Assembly: GCA_002787535.1 (NCBI GenBank)
Contig: PCXB01000050.1
Span: 8,205-72,204 of the forward strand
Direction: 5' to 3'
From: Deltaproteobacteria bacterium CG11_big_fil_rev_8_21_14_0_20_45_16
GTDB lineage: Bacteria; Bdellovibrionota; UBA2394
Length of the DNA stretch: 64,000 bases
Shown: in pieces, positions 26,186 through 32,260 of the stretch
Position numbering within the stretch: the stretch's first letter is position 1
Layout: each line of letters begins with the position of its first letter
Translations under genes and position numbers: made by a program
Notes under the pieces: model-generated
The model's database searches: none
Seen by the model: the letters and a program-made list of their open reading frames with translations, nothing else
What the model was told of the DNA's origin: nothing

Positions 26186-26290
26186 ATGCTAAAGCAAATT
26201 TCTTTCAAACATTTAAGCTACCTTATGATATTCGCGGCCTCGGCACTTCTGCCTGGCTGTAAGAACAGGATCCTATCTGGCGATTATTGA
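26186..26290 (+). CDS. Lipoprotein signal-peptide-only ORF (34 aa), probably the 5' part of a frameshifted gene
   Basis: Strong SD (aaggag, 7 nt upstream) followed by ATG. The product MLKQISFKHLSYLMIFAASALLPGCKNRILSGDY has lipobox LLPGC. Its stop overlaps the start of the following ORF, which is in another frame. Confidence 0.4.
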   Translation: MLKQISFKHLSYLMIFAASALLPGCKNRILSGDY

Positions 26291-26673
26291 TTCCGCAGTA
26301 TGCGCGCTTTTGTGATGTCTTTCCTGCAGAGGGTTTAGAATTCAATGATGTTGGTGAAAATTTAAATAACTTAGATTCGCTCAACCCACGTCAGCAAGTC
26401 GAGGTACTTAATCAGCTCCAAGGTGCTTCAGTAGAAGACGCTTGTGGGCAGCTTCACGAATTATTAAATGGCAATAACTGTGTAAGCGTTGAAGACTTAT
26501 GTAATGCAAATCCTGAGGATTGTCAGGATCCAAGTGAGCTTCGAAGAGCCTTAGCGAAATGTGGCGTTGAAGACTGTGCCGATTGTGAAAGTTGCCAATC
26601 TCAAGCTTTAGGAAATGTATCAAGCCTCGAGGCTTGTTCTGCTGGCGAGGCCGAGTTTGAAGGCGATTTTTAA
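26287..26673 (+). CDS. Acidic cysteine-rich protein, likely the mature part of the frameshifted lipoprotein
   Basis: 128 aa with 10 Cys and many Asp/Glu (…EDCADCESCQSQ…). It has a TTG start and no RBS of its own. Its frame is open from 26263, overlapping the upstream signal-peptide ORF. Confidence 0.45.
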   Translation: MIPQYARFCDVFPAEGLEFNDVGENLNNLDSLNPRQQVEVLNQLQGASVEDACGQLHELLNGNNCVSVEDLCNANPEDCQDPSELRRALAKCGVEDCADCESCQSQALGNVSSLEACSAGEAEFEGDF

Positions 26674-27395
26674 TAGTGCCTTTTTGTAAGCTGCAGGAAT
26701 CTAAAACTTAGCGCCGCCGAGGCCGTCAGAAGTCCAATGGCAAGACCAACCCAGATTCCGATGGCTCCGAGGCTTGTGTGAAAGCCAAGATAGTAGCAAA
26801 GAGGTAAGGCCCAGAAGCTATAATTAAATAAGCTAATCAGTGTTGGCATTCGAATATCAGAAATTCCACGCAAGCATCCCAGGCTGATCACTTGAACCCC
26901 ATCAAAAATTTGAAAAATGGCAGCGACGATCATAAAGTCACCAGCAATATTCAGGATTGCTGAGTCATTTGTATAGATGGCGGGGAGGCTTCGATGGCCA
27001 AAGGCAAAAATTATTCCAAATAATCCCATGCTTAAAATTCCAAGTAGGAGAGCACTAAGGCCTTCGCGCCTCGCTTCGCGAATTTGCTTTCGTCCGAAGG
27101 CCATGCCAACAAGGATAGTGGCGGCAAAAGAAATTCCGAGTGCAAACATAAAGGTTGTGGCGGCCATACTCAGAGCAATCTGATGGGCAGCAAGTTCGTT
27201 AACACCAATCCATCCCATCATCACGGCAGCCATAGCAAAAGTGCCTACTTCGAAGAGTCCTTGAAAGCCGCTTGGAAAGCCAATCTTAATCGCGGACTTA
27301 AATAGCCCAGCTTGAAATTTTGCCATCCAAGATTTGGGAAAGAAATCTTTAAAGTAAGGATTTTTGAAAATAAGCCAGGCAAGGCCGACGAACAT
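26670..27395 (-). pseudogene. MATE-family efflux transporter, C-terminal half only (5'-truncated by mobile element insertion)
   Basis: The 241 aa product has six TM helices typical of the second MATE lobe. The reading frame stays open upstream of the Met right into the left inverted repeat (stop inside the repeat at 27411-13), and no N-terminal half exists upstream. Confidence 0.6.
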
Positions 27396-27406
27396 CAGAC
27401 ATAGAT

Positions 27407-28232
27407 GGGGTCAGGGCGGTTAAGTGCCAGGTAATCTTATATATGAGCTTTCCGGAAAGTTGCATAGATTTTCGGTTTATGGATGAAAAAGTGGATCAAC
27501 ATCCTGAATTGCCCGGCATTGGGGTGGGATTGCGAATTGCATTATGTTCTCAGATAATGTCACGAACAAGACGCCTCGAAATGCCTGGCGCCTACTATCA
27601 TATAATGAACCGTGGTCTTGCCAAGCAAACCATTGTTTTTGATCACGCCGATTTCGATTACTTTACTAAGGGCTTGAAGGAGATTTCAGAACTCTACGAC
27701 GTAGAGATTTTTGCCTATTGTTTGATGAGTAACCATTATCATCTGCTGATTAGAACGCGCATACCCAACTTATCACGGGCGATGCGCCACTTTGGTCATA
27801 CTTTTACGCAACGAGTCAATCTACGTGTTAAACGAGACGGCCCACTTTTTCGTGGGCGATTCAAGTCGCTATTGGTTTGTGATGATTCTTATTTGCTTCA
27901 ATTAGTCCGCTATATTCATCGTAATCCCGTGAAGGCCGGAATTGTTGAGAGAGTCCGAGACTATGAATGGTCGAGTGCTTTAGGCTATGAAAGCCCCAGT
28001 TTTCCAGTATGGCTCTCGCGAGATGAAATTCTTAGCAGATTCAATAGTAACAGGAAGTCAGCTTCCAAGGCTTATTGTGAGTTTGTTGAAAACGAGAGCT
28101 CGGGGGAGCTTGAAGCTTTTTATTCACGTCAAAGGCTCGGAGATCGCTTAACGGAAGAACGAATTCTTCGTGCTCATGAAAATGCAATTAAAGAAGGTCG
28201 GAGCTTACCTGGCACTTAACCGCCCTGACCCC
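27407..28232 (+). mobile_element. 826-bp element: RAYT/IS200-like Y1 transposase gene flanked by perfect 27-bp inverted repeats
   Basis: Left repeat GGGGTCAGGGCGGTTAAGTGCCAGGTA (27407-27433) and right repeat TACCTGGCACTTAACCGCCCTGACCCC (28206-28232) are exact reverse complements. No target-site duplication is visible. The element disrupts the MATE gene on one side and supplies the last 14 codons of the hydrolase gene on the other. Confidence 0.75.
27557..28219 (+). CDS. Y1 HUH tyrosine transposase, IS200-like / REP-associated (RAYT-like)
   Basis: YYHIMNRG...CLMSNHYHLLIRT holds the HUH motif HYH. VRYIHRNPVKAGIV matches the YIHxNPVKxG catalytic-Tyr motif of RAYT/IS200-like proteins. The ORF track starts at 27443, but the family-typical start is MSRTRRLEMPGAYYH at 27557 (in frame). 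Confidence 0.7.
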   Translation: MSRTRRLEMPGAYYHIMNRGLAKQTIVFDHADFDYFTKGLKEISELYDVEIFAYCLMSNHYHLLIRTRIPNLSRAMRHFGHTFTQRVNLRVKRDGPLFRGRFKSLLVCDDSYLLQLVRYIHRNPVKAGIVERVRDYEWSSALGYESPSFPVWLSRDEILSRFNSNRKSASKAYCEFVENESSGELEAFYSRQRLGDRLTEERILRAHENAIKEGRSLPGT

Positions 28233-29447
28233 CAAGCTTGGAAAGTCGGTTGAGTAATCGATTTCGTAGAGACTGGAGCCGCATTGATAGCTAATTTTTT
28301 CGCCACGCTCAAAATCATCTTGCTGCACAAGATGATTTTGGCGTCTTTGAGGGTCGGCGAAGTCCAAGATCAATCCTTTGAAGCTCGTCTCATCGTGTTG
28401 ATCTAAACTTTGATACCCGATGGGGAGTCCTACATTGGAAGTTAAATATTCAAGGTCAAAGCCATTTTCTTTCATAAGTCGAACGAAGACCTCTTTTTCA
28501 GATCGTGGATGCATTTCGTCATCGATTTGCTGTGTCATGACGAAATGCGGTCCGGGGCCCCTAGTTTGCGCTTTCCATTGTTGAATTTGATTCGTATCAA
28601 GTTGAGTTCGAATCATCGCTCTATCGGGAGAAAAATAATTTTGGCTGTTTGGATCTCGTGACCAATAGTTTTCCATGATGAGATGCATTTTGATACTTTC
28701 GTTTTGTACGGTAGCCGCCCAATCACCTTTATGAATCCATTTGAGATAGGGCTTAACCCAACCATAAGAATTAATAATCAGTGAGAATGTATTAGGAGCA
28801 AAGCGAGCACATTGAGTGCTCAAATAGCCCCCATGGCTAATGCCGGCAGCTGTTAACTGGTTCCAATTTGCTTTCGGAAACTTCTCTTTGGCGAGGCGAA
28901 TGGCCCATAGGCAATCTATTGTTTGCATCAGGCCAAAATCATAGTGATCATCAGGAAACCGTTTGCCAATGACGCCCATATATTCTCCGGCTTCCAGATG
29001 ATATTGCTCTCGCAACTTTTTAAGATAATTAACAGTCAAATGAGCTGCCTTTGGACTTTGGAGGACGTCCGCGGGTATGAGAGGTAGACCTAATTCAACC
29101 AATCTTTCATTGGTCATTTTTAGGCAGACTTCGTCAAAAAAGGGAATGCCGTTCAAGTCTCGAAGAATCTTTGTGCCCAGGTAATCCAAGGTGATGACAA
29201 GGGCATTGCATTTGGTGCGAATACTCTCATGAAAAGATTTAAGGTAATCGGAATCCCCGAGTCGCCCAAAACCATGAAGCGCTAGAAGTGGAAAGGTCTC
29301 CGAATTGACGCCATCCGGAGGTTCTGAAATCCATACGGGAAGCTGTTGCCGCTCAACGACTGCAAGCTCGGGCGGTTGTGGAGGGGCGAGCAAGAAGCTA
29401 TGTCGCCCATTGCTAACTTCCTTGTGTTCGATGATTGGGTTCGCCAC
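28188..29447 (-). CDS. Putative alpha/beta-hydrolase (esterase/lipase-like); 3' end now supplied by the mobile element
   Basis: 419 aa with a GISHG nucleophile-elbow (GxSxG) and an LALHGFG oxyanion-like region. The last 14 codons (GVRAVKCQVSSDLL) are encoded by the right inverted repeat of the element, so the native 3' end has been replaced. Confidence 0.5.
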   Translation of the reverse strand: MANPIIEHKEVSNGRHSFLLAPPQPPELAVVERQQLPVWISEPPDGVNSETFPLLALHGFGRLGDSDYLKSFHESIRTKCNALVITLDYLGTKILRDLNGIPFFDEVCLKMTNERLVELGLPLIPADVLQSPKAAHLTVNYLKKLREQYHLEAGEYMGVIGKRFPDDHYDFGLMQTIDCLWAIRLAKEKFPKANWNQLTAAGISHGGYLSTQCARFAPNTFSLIINSYGWVKPYLKWIHKGDWAATVQNESIKMHLIMENYWSRDPNSQNYFSPDRAMIRTQLDTNQIQQWKAQTRGPGPHFVMTQQIDDEMHPRSEKEVFVRLMKENGFDLEYLTSNVGLPIGYQSLDQHDETSFKGLILDFADPQRRQNHLVQQDDFERGEKISYQCGSSLYEIDYSTDFPSLGVRAVKCQVSSDLL

Positions 29448-29558
29448 TCACTCGCAGTCTATACTAACTTTACTAACTTTTTGAATCGGATCTATGCTTT
29501 AAGCAGTGCGACAGCTCGTTCATAGGATGGGAATGAGCTCAAATAAGTCTTTGAAACT

Positions 29559-30797
29559 ATGGGGTTTTTCAGGGCTAAAATAGGCATAGGGCTTGCAAAT
29601 TTTAGAATCGTGATTCGTAGGCTTTCTTCTATCCTTCTGAGTTTAGTTTTAAGTACGTCCGTTTTGGCGCAAACGGAAGACGATAAAAAGTTTGTAATGA
29701 TTCTTAGTGGTCAGGATGAGTCGGCGCCGATTAAGACGCCGAATGTTTGGTCAAAGGCTCTCAGCGAAATTTTATTACATTATGATTTAACTAGAGCTTC
29801 AAAGATTGAAGCTCTTCCCGATCTCCGTGTGCCGGACGGATTGAGTGAAACGAGTCAAAAAAAATTAGAGTACCTTTATAGTGTTTATTTAAAATTTAGG
29901 ACTGAATCGCCAAAATCAAGATGGTTTCTTGAGACAAGACTGCCGGAGCTTATTGGCGATCTTTCAAAGTCTTTTGAGGCCGAGAGAGATTTGAGGCCGG
30001 CCGATGGCTCTCCAGTTCAAGCTTGCCCGCCGGACGCTGGAGGCGTCGAAGATTTTGTGAACGAGGCAACAAGGACCGGCGAAGCCCGTGTTGAAGCAAT
30101 CGATATCGCCGCTTGGAAAAATAACTGGAGCCCGCGAGTTGCTGCCGCGTTTATTCGTCAGAAAATTAAAGATTATTCCTTTGCTTTAAATGCCCCTATT
30201 GTTTCGCGGGAGAGTTCGGGAATGAAGCCCCCTAAAAGTGATATCAATCAATGGGCTCCTAACGCGGCTATACGAAGAATTATCGTTCATCATACGGTTA
30301 CCTCGAATAAACTTACGGCGACTGATATTCAGCAAATGCATTTTGATAACCCGACAGAAAAATACTCCGATGTCGCCTACCACTTTCTGATTGGGGATGA
30401 TGGAAAAATTTATGAAGGTCGAGAACTAAAATATAAGGGGGGTCATTCTGAAAACAATAATGATGACTCTATCGGCATCACCTTTATTCGAAATAGCCAG
30501 TCCTTTGATGCCATCAATAATCCATCGGGTTGGACCGATCCCAAAGACGCGCCCCCTTCCCCTGAAGCCCTTTTGGCCTTTGCGCAGCTTGTTCACTCTT
30601 TAGAAACACCAGGAGCCAAGCTTCATGATCAGCTTGTGAATCAAAATCTTAGAGTCGAATTTCGGCATATCATCGGGCATACTCATACGAAAGCTACGGA
30701 TTGTCCTGGGGATGGATGCTTAGAGGCGGTCAAAGCTTTTGATGATGTTATGATGGTCGAGCCAAAGGCAGCGGCTAAGGAGAAGAAGAAAAAATGA
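29559..30797 (+). CDS. Secreted N-acetylmuramoyl-L-alanine amidase (Amidase_2/PGRP domain) with N-terminal unknown domain
   Basis: The C-terminal domain has ...IIVHHTVTS...DVAYHFLIGDDGKIYEGR...IGHTHTKATDCPG, the zinc-ligand pattern of amidase_2/PGRP. A signal-peptide-like N-terminus is present. Confidence 0.7.
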   Translation: MGFFRAKIGIGLANFRIVIRRLSSILLSLVLSTSVLAQTEDDKKFVMILSGQDESAPIKTPNVWSKALSEILLHYDLTRASKIEALPDLRVPDGLSETSQKKLEYLYSVYLKFRTESPKSRWFLETRLPELIGDLSKSFEAERDLRPADGSPVQACPPDAGGVEDFVNEATRTGEARVEAIDIAAWKNNWSPRVAAAFIRQKIKDYSFALNAPIVSRESSGMKPPKSDINQWAPNAAIRRIIVHHTVTSNKLTATDIQQMHFDNPTEKYSDVAYHFLIGDDGKIYEGRELKYKGGHSENNNDDSIGITFIRNSQSFDAINNPSGWTDPKDAPPSPEALLAFAQLVHSLETPGAKLHDQLVNQNLRVEFRHIIGHTHTKATDCPGDGCLEAVKAFDDVMMVEPKAAAKEKKKK

Positions 30798-31210
30798 AAG
30801 CTTTTGTTGAAAAATTGAGTTTATGTTTTCTCTTGGCGGCGAGTTTTTCTTTGCATGCAAGTGCCTCGAAACCTAAGGAAGAAAAAGAAAGCTTGCAGAA
30901 AACAAAAGTAAAAGTATTTCTAGAGGATTATGCCTCAAAGATCGGCACAGCTTCCAAGGCAGAGATCGCTGTCTATTATACGGAACGTTTGAAAAATATT
31001 TTAGGCCCCAAGCTTTTGGAGAATCTATCTTCCACTAAGGCCTTTGATTCTAAAGAAGTCGAAATTTTGGATTTCAAGGAGAAGGGCGATAGGGTTTTTG
31101 TAAAATGGAATATTAAAGGTCGGGATACTAAGCTTTCAAAATGGTATGTTTTGATTCCGTCTAAGGAAAAGACGCCTTATCAGATCTTCGATATCACCGA
31201 AGATCTCTAA
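30794..31210 (+). CDS. Hypothetical secreted protein
   Basis: 138 aa with signal peptide MKAFVEKLSLCFLLAASFSLHASA. Shares a 4-nt ATGA overlap with the upstream gene. Confidence 0.5.
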   Translation: MKAFVEKLSLCFLLAASFSLHASASKPKEEKESLQKTKVKVFLEDYASKIGTASKAEIAVYYTERLKNILGPKLLENLSSTKAFDSKEVEILDFKEKGDRVFVKWNIKGRDTKLSKWYVLIPSKEKTPYQIFDITEDL

Positions 31211-31230
31211 ATCGCGGAGAAATGAGCCTA

Positions 31231-31259
31231 TTGACGCCATATGTGACGTCAGTTATGCT
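31231..31259 (+). promoter_or_regulatory. Near-consensus sigma70-type promoter (TTGACG-17 nt-TATGCT) with internal TGACGTCA palindrome; would give a leaderless transcript for the NTase gene
   Basis: -35 at 31231-36 and -10 at 31254-59 with 17 nt spacing. The GTG start of the downstream CDS lies 6 nt after the -10. The palindrome TGACGTCA at 31243-50 sits in the spacer. Confidence 0.4.
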
Positions 31260-31264
31260 AAATT

Positions 31265-31672
31265 GTGAATCGGATCGTCATCAAAGAGCTAGTGGATGAA
31301 TTGGTAGATAAACTGCCTGGCGATTGGGTGTTACTAGGAGGCTCGTTGCTATCCTACTTAAATATTTCAGATCGGCAAACTTATGATATCGATCTTGCCC
31401 CCAAGGGAAAAATTTCAAACGATATAACTTTGGCGGCCATGGAGATTGCCTCAAAAAAGGGGATGCCTCCAGAGGCGATCAATTTTTCTGTAGCATACTT
31501 TCTTAAAAAGCAGAGGTCTTGGGAGTCGGAATTGATTTTGATTCGGAAAACCAAATCATCTCGGCTGTTTCGTCCTACAAAGAAACTTTTTCGAAAATTA
31601 AAGGAAGCTAGAGGGACAGAGACAGATATTAGAGACATAGAATTGTACGAATCTGGAGTAGAAGATCGGTGA
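31265..31672 (+). CDS. Minimal AbiEii-like nucleotidyltransferase
   Basis: 135 aa. VLLGGSLLSYLNISDRQTYDIDLAPK carries the same GG...Y...R-x-T-x-DIDL core as the 215-aa NTase at 12077-12724. GTG start. Confidence 0.55.
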   Translation: MNRIVIKELVDELVDKLPGDWVLLGGSLLSYLNISDRQTYDIDLAPKGKISNDITLAAMEIASKKGMPPEAINFSVAYFLKKQRSWESELILIRKTKSSRLFRPTKKLFRKLKEARGTETDIRDIELYESGVEDR

Positions 31673-32205
31673 GGGAGTTTGGCCAATTTTTGAAGGTCTT
31701 GCGAGTTGAAACTGGGCTTTCCCAAAGGGAGCTCGCTAAGTTATCGAAGGTAAGTTTCCGTCAGATTCAGCGGATCGAAAAAGGCCAATGTGACCCAAGT
31801 CTCGGGCTCGCTGACTTGCTTTTCAAACAGTTTCGCGTTGAGCTGAAGCCTCTATATGAAGAGCCAGATTGGGGATTCCTGTCCAGTATCGGGTGGCCAA
31901 TGATTGATTCATATCAGCAGAAGGAAAGGGCTAAGAGAGTGAGCTGGACGAGGGTATCCGGCGAAATAATCTATGCAGCTAAATATATTTTAAGAAATCG
32001 AAATGAATTTTCTGACGACCGTCATTTTGATGCCATGAAAGCCTTATTATTTGCCTTGAAAACGCACTATCCAACGAAGTTCCGAGAACTCGAAGCGATT
32101 CTGGGTCCTAAATTTCTCAAACCCTATGAGCTGGCGGAAATCCGGGGAAGAGATATTAAGCTCCGTAATATTTCATTGGGACGGCTATATAAATACCTTT
32201 CGTAA
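31669..32205 (+). CDS. XRE-family HTH protein with C-terminal domain of unknown function (putative partner of the NTase)
   Basis: 178 aa. The N-terminal LRVETGLSQRELAKLSKVSFRQIQRIEKG is a Cro/C1-type HTH. The GTG start overlaps the NTase stop by 4 nt. Confidence 0.55.
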   Translation: MREFGQFLKVLRVETGLSQRELAKLSKVSFRQIQRIEKGQCDPSLGLADLLFKQFRVELKPLYEEPDWGFLSSIGWPMIDSYQQKERAKRVSWTRVSGEIIYAAKYILRNRNEFSDDRHFDAMKALLFALKTHYPTKFRELEAILGPKFLKPYELAEIRGRDIKLRNISLGRLYKYLS

Positions 32206-32260
32206 ATTCTGGAGAGAAGGCTTGCAAGGTGGATGTTCATAGAGGCATCCTTAGGCTTAT

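Follow-up and report, generated by a model that had tools for sequence, protein, structure and literature searches.

A probable TIRtron with a compact RAYT-like HUH-Y1 nuclease gene at a terminal-repeat-associated rearrangement in an uncultured 'Deltaproteobacteria' lineage

When a transposase-like gene stands between exact inverted repeats and a piece of an unrelated gene abuts each outer tip, is it a mobile insertion sequence (IS) or the resident enzyme of a dispersed repeat family? We addressed this question for an 826-bp unit in a 64,000-nt stretch (hereafter the window) of contig PCXB01000050.1, from the metagenome-assembled genome (MAG) Deltaproteobacteria bacterium CG11_big_fil_rev_8_21_14_0_20_45_16. 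The unit carries a RAYT-like gene for an HUH-Y1 nuclease and lies between what is left of a MATE transporter gene and the gene of a DUF2920 alpha/beta-hydrolase. A first-pass annotation of the sequence had read it as a RAYT-type element that recently behaved like a mobile IS. Our analysis makes it highly probable that the unit is a TIRtron, i.e. a single-copy TIRYT gene between inverted 28-nt repeats, with the repeats dispersed through what appears to be the same genome and probably spread in trans.

The unit is enclosed by an inverted repeat with 31-nt arms (27407-27437 and 28202-28232) that are 97% complementary, with one mismatch, and whose outer 28 nt are exact. The first-pass annotation had described exact inverted repeats of 27 bp at the ends of the unit, which holds for their exactness and terminal position, while the length is 28. 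The two arms are the sole copies in the window, where no other was found at up to 3 mismatches, and half-site patterns with 3 mismatches gave no weaker copies above chance. The repeat starts with GGGGTCAG, which fits the published GGGGWSAS motif. A single window repeat folds with -1.7 kcal/mol (z = -0.64) and two other lineage variants with 0 kcal/mol; in three of four lineage variants the single repeat was no better folded than its shuffles, and no hairpin is conserved across the variants. Since a single repeat folds no better than shuffled sequence, we consider it a terminal inverted repeat (TIR) and not a palindrome of the repetitive extragenic palindromic (REP) type. Neither a GTAG nor a GT[AG]G foot was found in the window repeat, and no Rfam families were found in the region.

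It is hardly credible that the repeat and the gene fragments stem from chance or misassembly. Metagenome assemblies carry a general risk of breaking or joining at repeats, the only point that speaks for such an origin, but none of 100 shuffles of the sequence gave a match to the 28-nt exact inverted repeat. Moreover, the locus is 100% identical over window positions 26201-29600, or the part of them spanned, in the eight assemblies compared (L001-L006, L012 and L013), and its junctions are the same across these assemblies from JGI, ENA and Logan samples. Because of this identity, the locus is no assembly artefact.

The gene inside the unit is of the RAYT-like Y1 kind, in agreement with the first-pass annotation of the 826-bp unit. 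The mechanical open reading frame (ORF) at 27443-28219 on the forward strand matched Pfam Y1_Tnp with 36 bits and NCBIfam REP_Tyr_transpos (NF047646) with 82.1 bits, a marginal pass of the cut-off of 80. The HUH motif NHYHLL (H98, H100) and the tyrosine Y157 in YIHRNPVKAG are invariant columns in an alignment with 11 homologues. As every homologue in this alignment begins at M39 of the window ORF, we place the real start at this methionine (27557), and the true gene probably spans 27557-28219 and encodes 220 aa. Gene calls of 258, 246 and 242 aa (mechanical ORF, NCBI/JGI) add 22-38 N-terminal residues that are found in no homologue. A weak sigma-70-like site at 27530-27558 is no more than a consensus match. 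The Y1 and hydrolase ORFs are convergent and overlap by 32 nt. At NCBI the Y1 protein, locus tag COV44_06145, is labelled as hypothetical, its source being a 'Deltaproteobacteria bacterium' MAG; to this MAG belong also locus tag COV44_06150 and the proteins PIR22732.1 and PIR22733.1.

Pfam detected Y1_Tnp alone in the window protein, and no Bac_DnaA_C, HTH_23 or HTH_28 extension. Of 3969 homologues, the best 120 were mostly proteins of about 326 aa combining Y1_Tnp with Bac_DnaA_C, and in the alignment the window protein ends where the DnaA_C domain of these 326-aa relatives begins. The nearest of the best 120 of 3969 form a subfamily of 219-224 aa with 51-55% identity, and most relatives at 45-50% identity among the matches listed carry PF08299. 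When the family profile was compared with solved structures, E. coli TnpA_REP (4ER8) was the only match (E = 1.8e-5), IS200/IS605 TnpA structures giving none; phmmer of the single Y1 protein against the PDB found no match.

The arrangement of gene and repeats recurs in homologous units. Those at loci L007 and L008, with proteins of 55% and 51% identity, are 821-822 bp long, and both ends of each read GGGGTCAGG-N5-TAAGTGCCAGGT in inverted orientation. A leader of 104-113 nt is found at the same place, and the ORFs stop inside the right TIR with (S/L)PGT followed by the stop codon; the C-termini of two of the closest homologues, SPGT in P0002 and LPGT in P0004, thus resemble that of the window protein. 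The contexts of the two units are unrelated, the one at L007 standing after fliL and the one at L008 after a pilin-like gene and its terminator. In addition, a 324-aa relative with Y1_Tnp and Bac_DnaA_C (P0047; element at L075 2944-3991, also L078 and L080) is flanked by 32-nt TIRs, AAGATAGGGGTCAAGTCTACATTTGACCATTA, which contain GGGGTCAAG, and its conserved C-terminal KGQ (KGQM plus stop) is encoded in the right TIR. Judged from these alignments, the overlap of TIR and ORF is part of the architecture of the gene family, kept across homologues at about 50% identity. Several contigs with the P0047 element are exactly as long as the element (1015-1049 bp), a length that hints at assemblies breaking where TIRs are multi-copy. 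The features of the window locus are collected in Table 1.

Table 1. Features at the 826-bp unit and its borders (window coordinates; TIR, terminal inverted repeat)
Feature	Position	Strand	Remarks
MATE (NorM-type) remnant, C-terminal half	26670..27406	-	ORF 26670-27395; MATE-derived up to, or at most 9 nt from, the TIR tip
Left TIR, GGGGTCAGGGCGGTTAAGTGCCAGGTAAtCT	27407..27437	+	outer 28 nt exact; opens with the GGGGWSAS motif
Leader, 119 nt, left TIR to probable start codon	27438..27556	+	inside the mechanical ORF from 27443; extension absent from homologues
TIRYT / RAYT-like HUH-Y1 nuclease gene, 220 aa (probable start)	27557..28219	+	C-terminal LPGT and stop encoded by the right TIR
Right TIR, reverse complement of the left TIR	28202..28232	-	carries the Y1 stop on the + strand and, on the - strand, some 10 of the last hydrolase codons
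DUF2920 alpha/beta-hydrolase gene, 419 aa	28188..29447	-	native part ends ...DFPSL

Copies of the repeat were sought beyond the window. A scan of one genome per species, in a collection that does not include the source MAG, with a degenerate 26-mer as query matched one MAG only, that of an uncultured Bacteriovoracaceae bacterium (CAZSZT01), which has 26 identical TIR copies on 20 contigs, four inverted doublets (136-178 bp) among them. Its single Y1 gene is 52% identical to that of the window and lies between two TIR copies. Some of the TIRs in CAZSZT01 (L015, L018-L022, L024, L031 and L033) lie within a longer repeat, with approximately CCGAAATCCCCCGCCTTTTTCTA outside the tip and AACCTGCGAC inside it, and at L021 a TIR copy of this longer kind lies about 180 bp past the end of the Y1 ORF, downstream of an apparently degenerate older TIR. 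An A, often as part of TA, stands in front of nearly every TIR copy of the MAG.

A metagenome scan returned 37 loci. After same-locus duplicates across samples had been removed, the window-type 26-mer, with GCGGT or GCGGA as variable block, was present at at least 14 further distinct loci. Twelve are tight inverted dimers, 56-77 bp in all, whose arms are separated by 4-25 nt, and two are TIR-bounded non-coding units of 259 bp. These loci come from the contig series Ga0210019, Ga0210057, Ga0066639, Ga0066649 and Ga0210050, four of which also hold the locus of the window, and one 168-kb contig holds four of the 14. Their contigs have a GC content of 0.43-0.46 and a tetranucleotide correlation with the window of 0.90-0.97, the corresponding values for ERZ761607 contigs with a different repeat variant being 0.77-0.89. 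The 14 loci are mostly extragenic, and neither a Y1 homologue nor a target duplication was found at any of them. The TIR dimer folds to a perfect hairpin of about 27 bp (-36.5 kcal/mol, z = -12.5). At six or more of the dimer loci (L041, L048/L067, L057/L063, L060, L035) an adjacent ORF extends 14 nt into the TIR, whose own TAA terminates it; a neighbouring gene that ends inside the repeat, as the hydrolase does, is therefore a recurrent feature of the family. The first-pass annotation had named an ordinary REP at many unrelated sites, with no link to the gene, as what would speak against its reading; the repeat is indeed dispersed at many unrelated sites, but the gene is its presumed cognate enzyme.

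The 259-bp units at L034 12781-13039 (also L047 and L069) and L066 2560-2818 are 91.5% identical and lie in opposite orientations, the one at L034 beginning 6 nt after a tRNA gene. No Rfam family was found in the 259-bp unit. We considered and rejected the possibility that these units are deletion derivatives of the 826-bp unit, since the interiors are unrelated and only the TIRs are shared. L045 9938-10014 and L049/L053 appear to be orthologous sites at the 5' end of a tRNA gene, both with TIR dimers; both arms differ together (GCGGA versus GCGGT) and the loops measure 25 and 13 nt, respectively. This co-variation of the arms within each dimer is as would be expected if dimers were copied as a unit.

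Being bounded by TIRs and devoid of coding capacity, the units of 56-259 bp resemble miniature inverted-repeat transposable elements (MITEs), and most TIR copies of the Bacteriovoracaceae MAG have the A or TA in front; the repeats could accordingly bound a family of MITEs that is mobilised by a DDE transposase from another locus, with the Y1 gene a mere passenger between them. We regard this as very improbable, as no target-site duplications were found at the dimers or the unit, and TIR and Y1 gene stay linked, and the ORF stop stays within the TIR, among homologues that share about 50% identity. Furthermore, the GGGGWSAS motif was reported specifically for TIRs that flank Y1 genes (PMC3733652), and no DDE transposase was noticed near any copy, although no systematic search was made for one.

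At the left border of the unit, the MATE ORF at 26670-27395 on the reverse strand covers positions 204-447 of 464 of the NorM profile, so that about 190-195 N-terminal codons are missing; its frame enters the left repeat by one codon and is then closed by the TGA of the repeat. The differing lengths given for this remnant are start choices of gene callers. A search with the remnant yielded one close relative, P0130 (85% identity), on a contig (L011) whose synteny with the window extends to either side (gatCAB on one, TerC and a peptidase M10 on the other), at about 80% nucleotide identity. L011 carries an intact MATE ORF of 436 aa and provides the comparison with an intact relative that the first-pass annotation had asked for. 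The nucleotide homology between L011 and the window ends at 27398 or, with a two-codon indel, may reach 27406, the last base before the repeat. Because the MATE gene of L011 is intact and the homology ends at the repeat tip or within 9 nt of it, the truncation to the C-terminal half, with the frame running into the repeat as annotated in the first pass, is real.

The remnant has not decayed: it has no stops in 241 codons, and its ratio of nonsynonymous to synonymous divergence (dN/dS) against L011 is 0.03, compared with 0.024-0.049 for gatA, gatB, gatC and TerC, in a test that is coarse because synonymous sites are saturated. Among the contigs of the locus, which are 100% identical, neither population variation nor pseudogene decay was found in it. 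Since the remnant is undecayed, the truncation is probably recent, late on the branch, or else the half gene may still be under selection; the recent event proposed in the first pass fits these data.

In L011 the MATE start is followed by about 118 bp and then by a divergent, decayed Amidase_2 pseudogene, and neither the hydrolase nor the Y1 gene nor the repeat was found in this interval. Compared with L011, the Y1 unit and the hydrolase thus replace about 585 bp of MATE 5' sequence and intergenic DNA; the right-hand boundary of the difference was sought upstream of the amidase start, where the window and L011 no longer align. L011 has other deletions in the interval, namely inside the amidase, of most of orf138, and of orf135 with its helix-turn-helix (HTH) neighbour. 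In view of these deletions, the hydrolase may have been ancestral and lost in L011, or gained in the window lineage.

Comparison of L011 3188-3756 with window 29559-32212 showed that the Amidase_2 gene of L011 is a decayed pseudogene with internal deletions, and window 31227-32212, with orf135 and an HTH_31/XRE-type gene, is absent from L011. By its appearance, the orf135/HTH pair could be an accessory module of two genes, and the interval around 29559-32212 is a rearrangement hot spot in both lineages.

At the right border, the last 14 codons of the hydrolase, GVRAVKCQVSSDLL, and its stop (28188-28232) are encoded by the unit. The first-pass annotation had assigned all of them to the right repeat; all do lie inside the unit, but only about 10 are in the repeat proper, four codons and the stop being antisense to the 3' end of the Y1 gene. 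On the strand read by flanking ORFs the TIR has stops in two of three frames, and the hydrolase uses the third, open frame. Hydrolase homologues end 5-8 residues past a conserved FPxL, and the window protein ends 14 past DFPSL; the native tail of about 5-8 codons has thus been replaced by 14 element-encoded codons. The whole database holds eight homologues of the hydrolase, the window's own included, of which the nearest other is 49% identical, and no synteny with a MATE or Y1 gene was found in four contexts at 43-49% identity (L009, L010, L083 and L084). The residues S204, which lies within a GISHGG stretch, D310 and H313 are invariant in the alignment and could form a catalytic triad; due to this invariance, the hydrolase is probably still functional.

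Is the unit then an autonomous IS-like element that recently transposed whole into the MATE gene, with or without an adjacent deletion to the hydrolase tail? An intact TIR tip stands flush with the MATE breakpoint, the relative having an intact gene, the remnant is undecayed, and the whole unit, from TIR and leader to the ORF ending in the TIR, is kept at 51-55% protein identity in differing contexts. The contigs of the related P0047 element are exactly element-long, although assembly breaks at multi-copy TIRs would look alike. Against this, the contigs found in JGI, ENA, Logan and NCBI with the exact Y1 protein, its start-codon variants P0001 and P0210, and GatC all represent one locus; no second genomic context was found among them, and the Y1 gene is single-copy among the contigs recovered. 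The several identical copies typical of IS200/IS605 elements were not found, the recovered assemblies holding only this locus, and none of the at least 14 other TIR loci carries a Y1 gene. Y1 homologues are rare on plasmids (27 of 72,556 records), no viral contig with the TIR was found in the scan, and REPtrons and TIRtrons have not been reported to move as units (PMC6006769). Moreover, a simple insertion, as the first-pass annotation implied, fails to explain the locus because its two flanks are not adjacent in L011, where the DNA replaced in the window is present and the Y1 gene and hydrolase are missing. For transposition of the unit followed by an adjacent deletion, the flush junction is the sole positive evidence. 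We therefore consider an autonomous element of this kind rather unlikely, and the IS-like mobility proposed in the first pass is not borne out by the copies recovered.

REPtron and REPIN-RAYT systems, reportedly described by Nunvar 2010, Bertels and Rainey 2011, Ton-Hoang 2012 and Messing 2012, offer a parallel. Like the window unit, those of E. coli (TnpA_REP/YafM) and the Pseudomonas RAYTs have a single-copy Y1 gene flanked on either side by a repeat, in inverted orientation, of which further copies are scattered over the genome in doublets that form hairpins; one gene with many dispersed repeats is also what we found in the Bacteriovoracaceae MAG (1 gene, 26 repeats). The match to REP_Tyr_transpos above the cut-off and TnpA_REP as sole solved relative point the same way. 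In contrast to REPtrons, however, the individual window repeat is no palindrome and has no GTAG/GT[AG]G foot, its copies are in the tens and not in the hundreds, and the repeats directly adjoin and overlap the ORF. With IS200/IS605 elements such as IS608 and ISDra2 the unit shares the HUH-Y1 catalytic core and the lack of target-site duplication, whereas those elements are multi-copy, insert 3' of a tetra- or pentanucleotide and have subterminal imperfect hairpins in place of TIRs, the window unit having symmetric 28-nt TIRs at its very tips.

The architecture that the first-pass annotation held to be unusual has a name. RAYT-like genes with long TIRs instead of REPs were termed TIRYTs, or TIRtrons, by Di Nocera, De Gregorio and Rocco (2013, BMC Genomics 14:522; PMC3733652), who described a common GGGGWSAS motif, TIRs overlapping the gene ends and, for some TIRtrons only, TIR families that are moderately abundant with many members in dimers. 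Subsequently, Quentin et al. (2018, BMC Genomics 19:475; PMC6006769) stated that the TIRtron/TIRYT kind 'probably corresponds' to TnpAY1 subclass 2.1, in which the proteins have C-terminal extensions of the Bac_DnaA_C or HTH (HTH_23, HTH_28) type; all 20 TIRYTs placed in this subclass are said to have such an extension. The window unit agrees with TIRtrons in its single-copy RAYT-like HUH-Y1 gene, the long TIRs that are not self-complementary and start with GGGGWSAS, the overlap of the TIR with the 3' end of the gene, and the dispersed, moderately abundant and largely dimeric TIR family. It differs in its short protein of 220 aa without Bac_DnaA_C, HTH_23 or HTH_28, in its host, an uncultured 'Deltaproteobacteria' MAG with related repeats in a Bacteriovoracaceae MAG, in the very tight window-type dimers (loops of 4-25 nt) and in adjoining two truncated genes. 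Since the 220-aa protein has no HTH extension, we file the unit as a TIRtron and as a short relative of subclass 2.1, not as a confirmed member of it; the affinity to this subclass is drawn from the DnaA_C-bearing nearest relatives and the TIR motif.

Several points weigh against the TIRtron assignment and the history proposed with it. The HTH extension of subclass 2.1 is absent from the window protein, and the link between enzyme and TIRs is one of association in the sequences compared. The contigs with dimers appear to belong to the genome of the window by shared samples, GC content and tetranucleotides. The metagenome scan, incomplete or masked, missed the window's own JGI contigs (e.g. Ga0066639_10001545, which is L002), and because it missed these known positives the repeat copy counts are lower bounds. 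In addition, the sole close relative, at about 80% nucleotide identity, has deletions of its own, and the hydrolase may have been lost there or gained in the window lineage. Taken with the evidence above, the feature probably belongs to the known TIRtron/TIRYT kind, and the TIR-associated rearrangement at which it lies is real and probably recent.

By analogy with the action of TnpA_REP on REPs and REPINs, the TIRYT enzyme would probably cut and rejoin single-stranded DNA at the TIR tips and spread the dimers in trans, the dimers being its non-autonomous substrates, as suggested by TnpA_REP and the IS200/IS605 HUH-Y1 enzymes, while the TIRYT gene itself would stay in place. How, then, did the unit come to its present borders? 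Both TIR tips are intact and flush with unrelated gene fragments, the left one with the middle of MATE and the right one with the hydrolase's 3' tail; because of this, an event specific to the TIR ends is indicated and a random deletion is unlikely. Three routes are equally compatible with the data. A TIR of the TIRtron may have recombined or slipped with a nearby TIR copy, such as one in MATE or a dimer at the tail of the hydrolase, the typical site; the enzyme may have performed an aberrant one-ended cleavage and joining; or the TIRtron may have arrived together with the hydrolase. The outcome is half a MATE gene, dead or crippled, and a hydrolase whose C-terminal tail has been swapped. That the whole TIRtron moved, perhaps with the DUF2920 hydrolase carried or dragged along, and recently landed in or deleted into MATE, is a possibility to which we give some, though small, credence.

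TIRtrons and TIRYTs have so far been described only bioinformatically. The locus overturns no current view and adds to them a compact HTH-less TIRYT from an uncultured lineage that resembles predatory bacteria, where enzyme and dimers make up a clean repeat system with small, defined candidate substrates, a 28-nt TIR and a 58-nt dimer. The TIR doubles as coding sequence, providing the C-terminus and stop of the enzyme as well as stops or tails of neighbouring genes. If the TIRtron had moved as a unit, a supposedly domesticated, immobile RAYT-like gene would have acted in cis on its own TIRs, and the locus would be a natural case of gene truncation and gene-tail swap. The window and L011 form a before/after pair in which an intact TIR tip and the breakpoint of a gene coincide, which hints that TIR ends may join in genome rearrangement.

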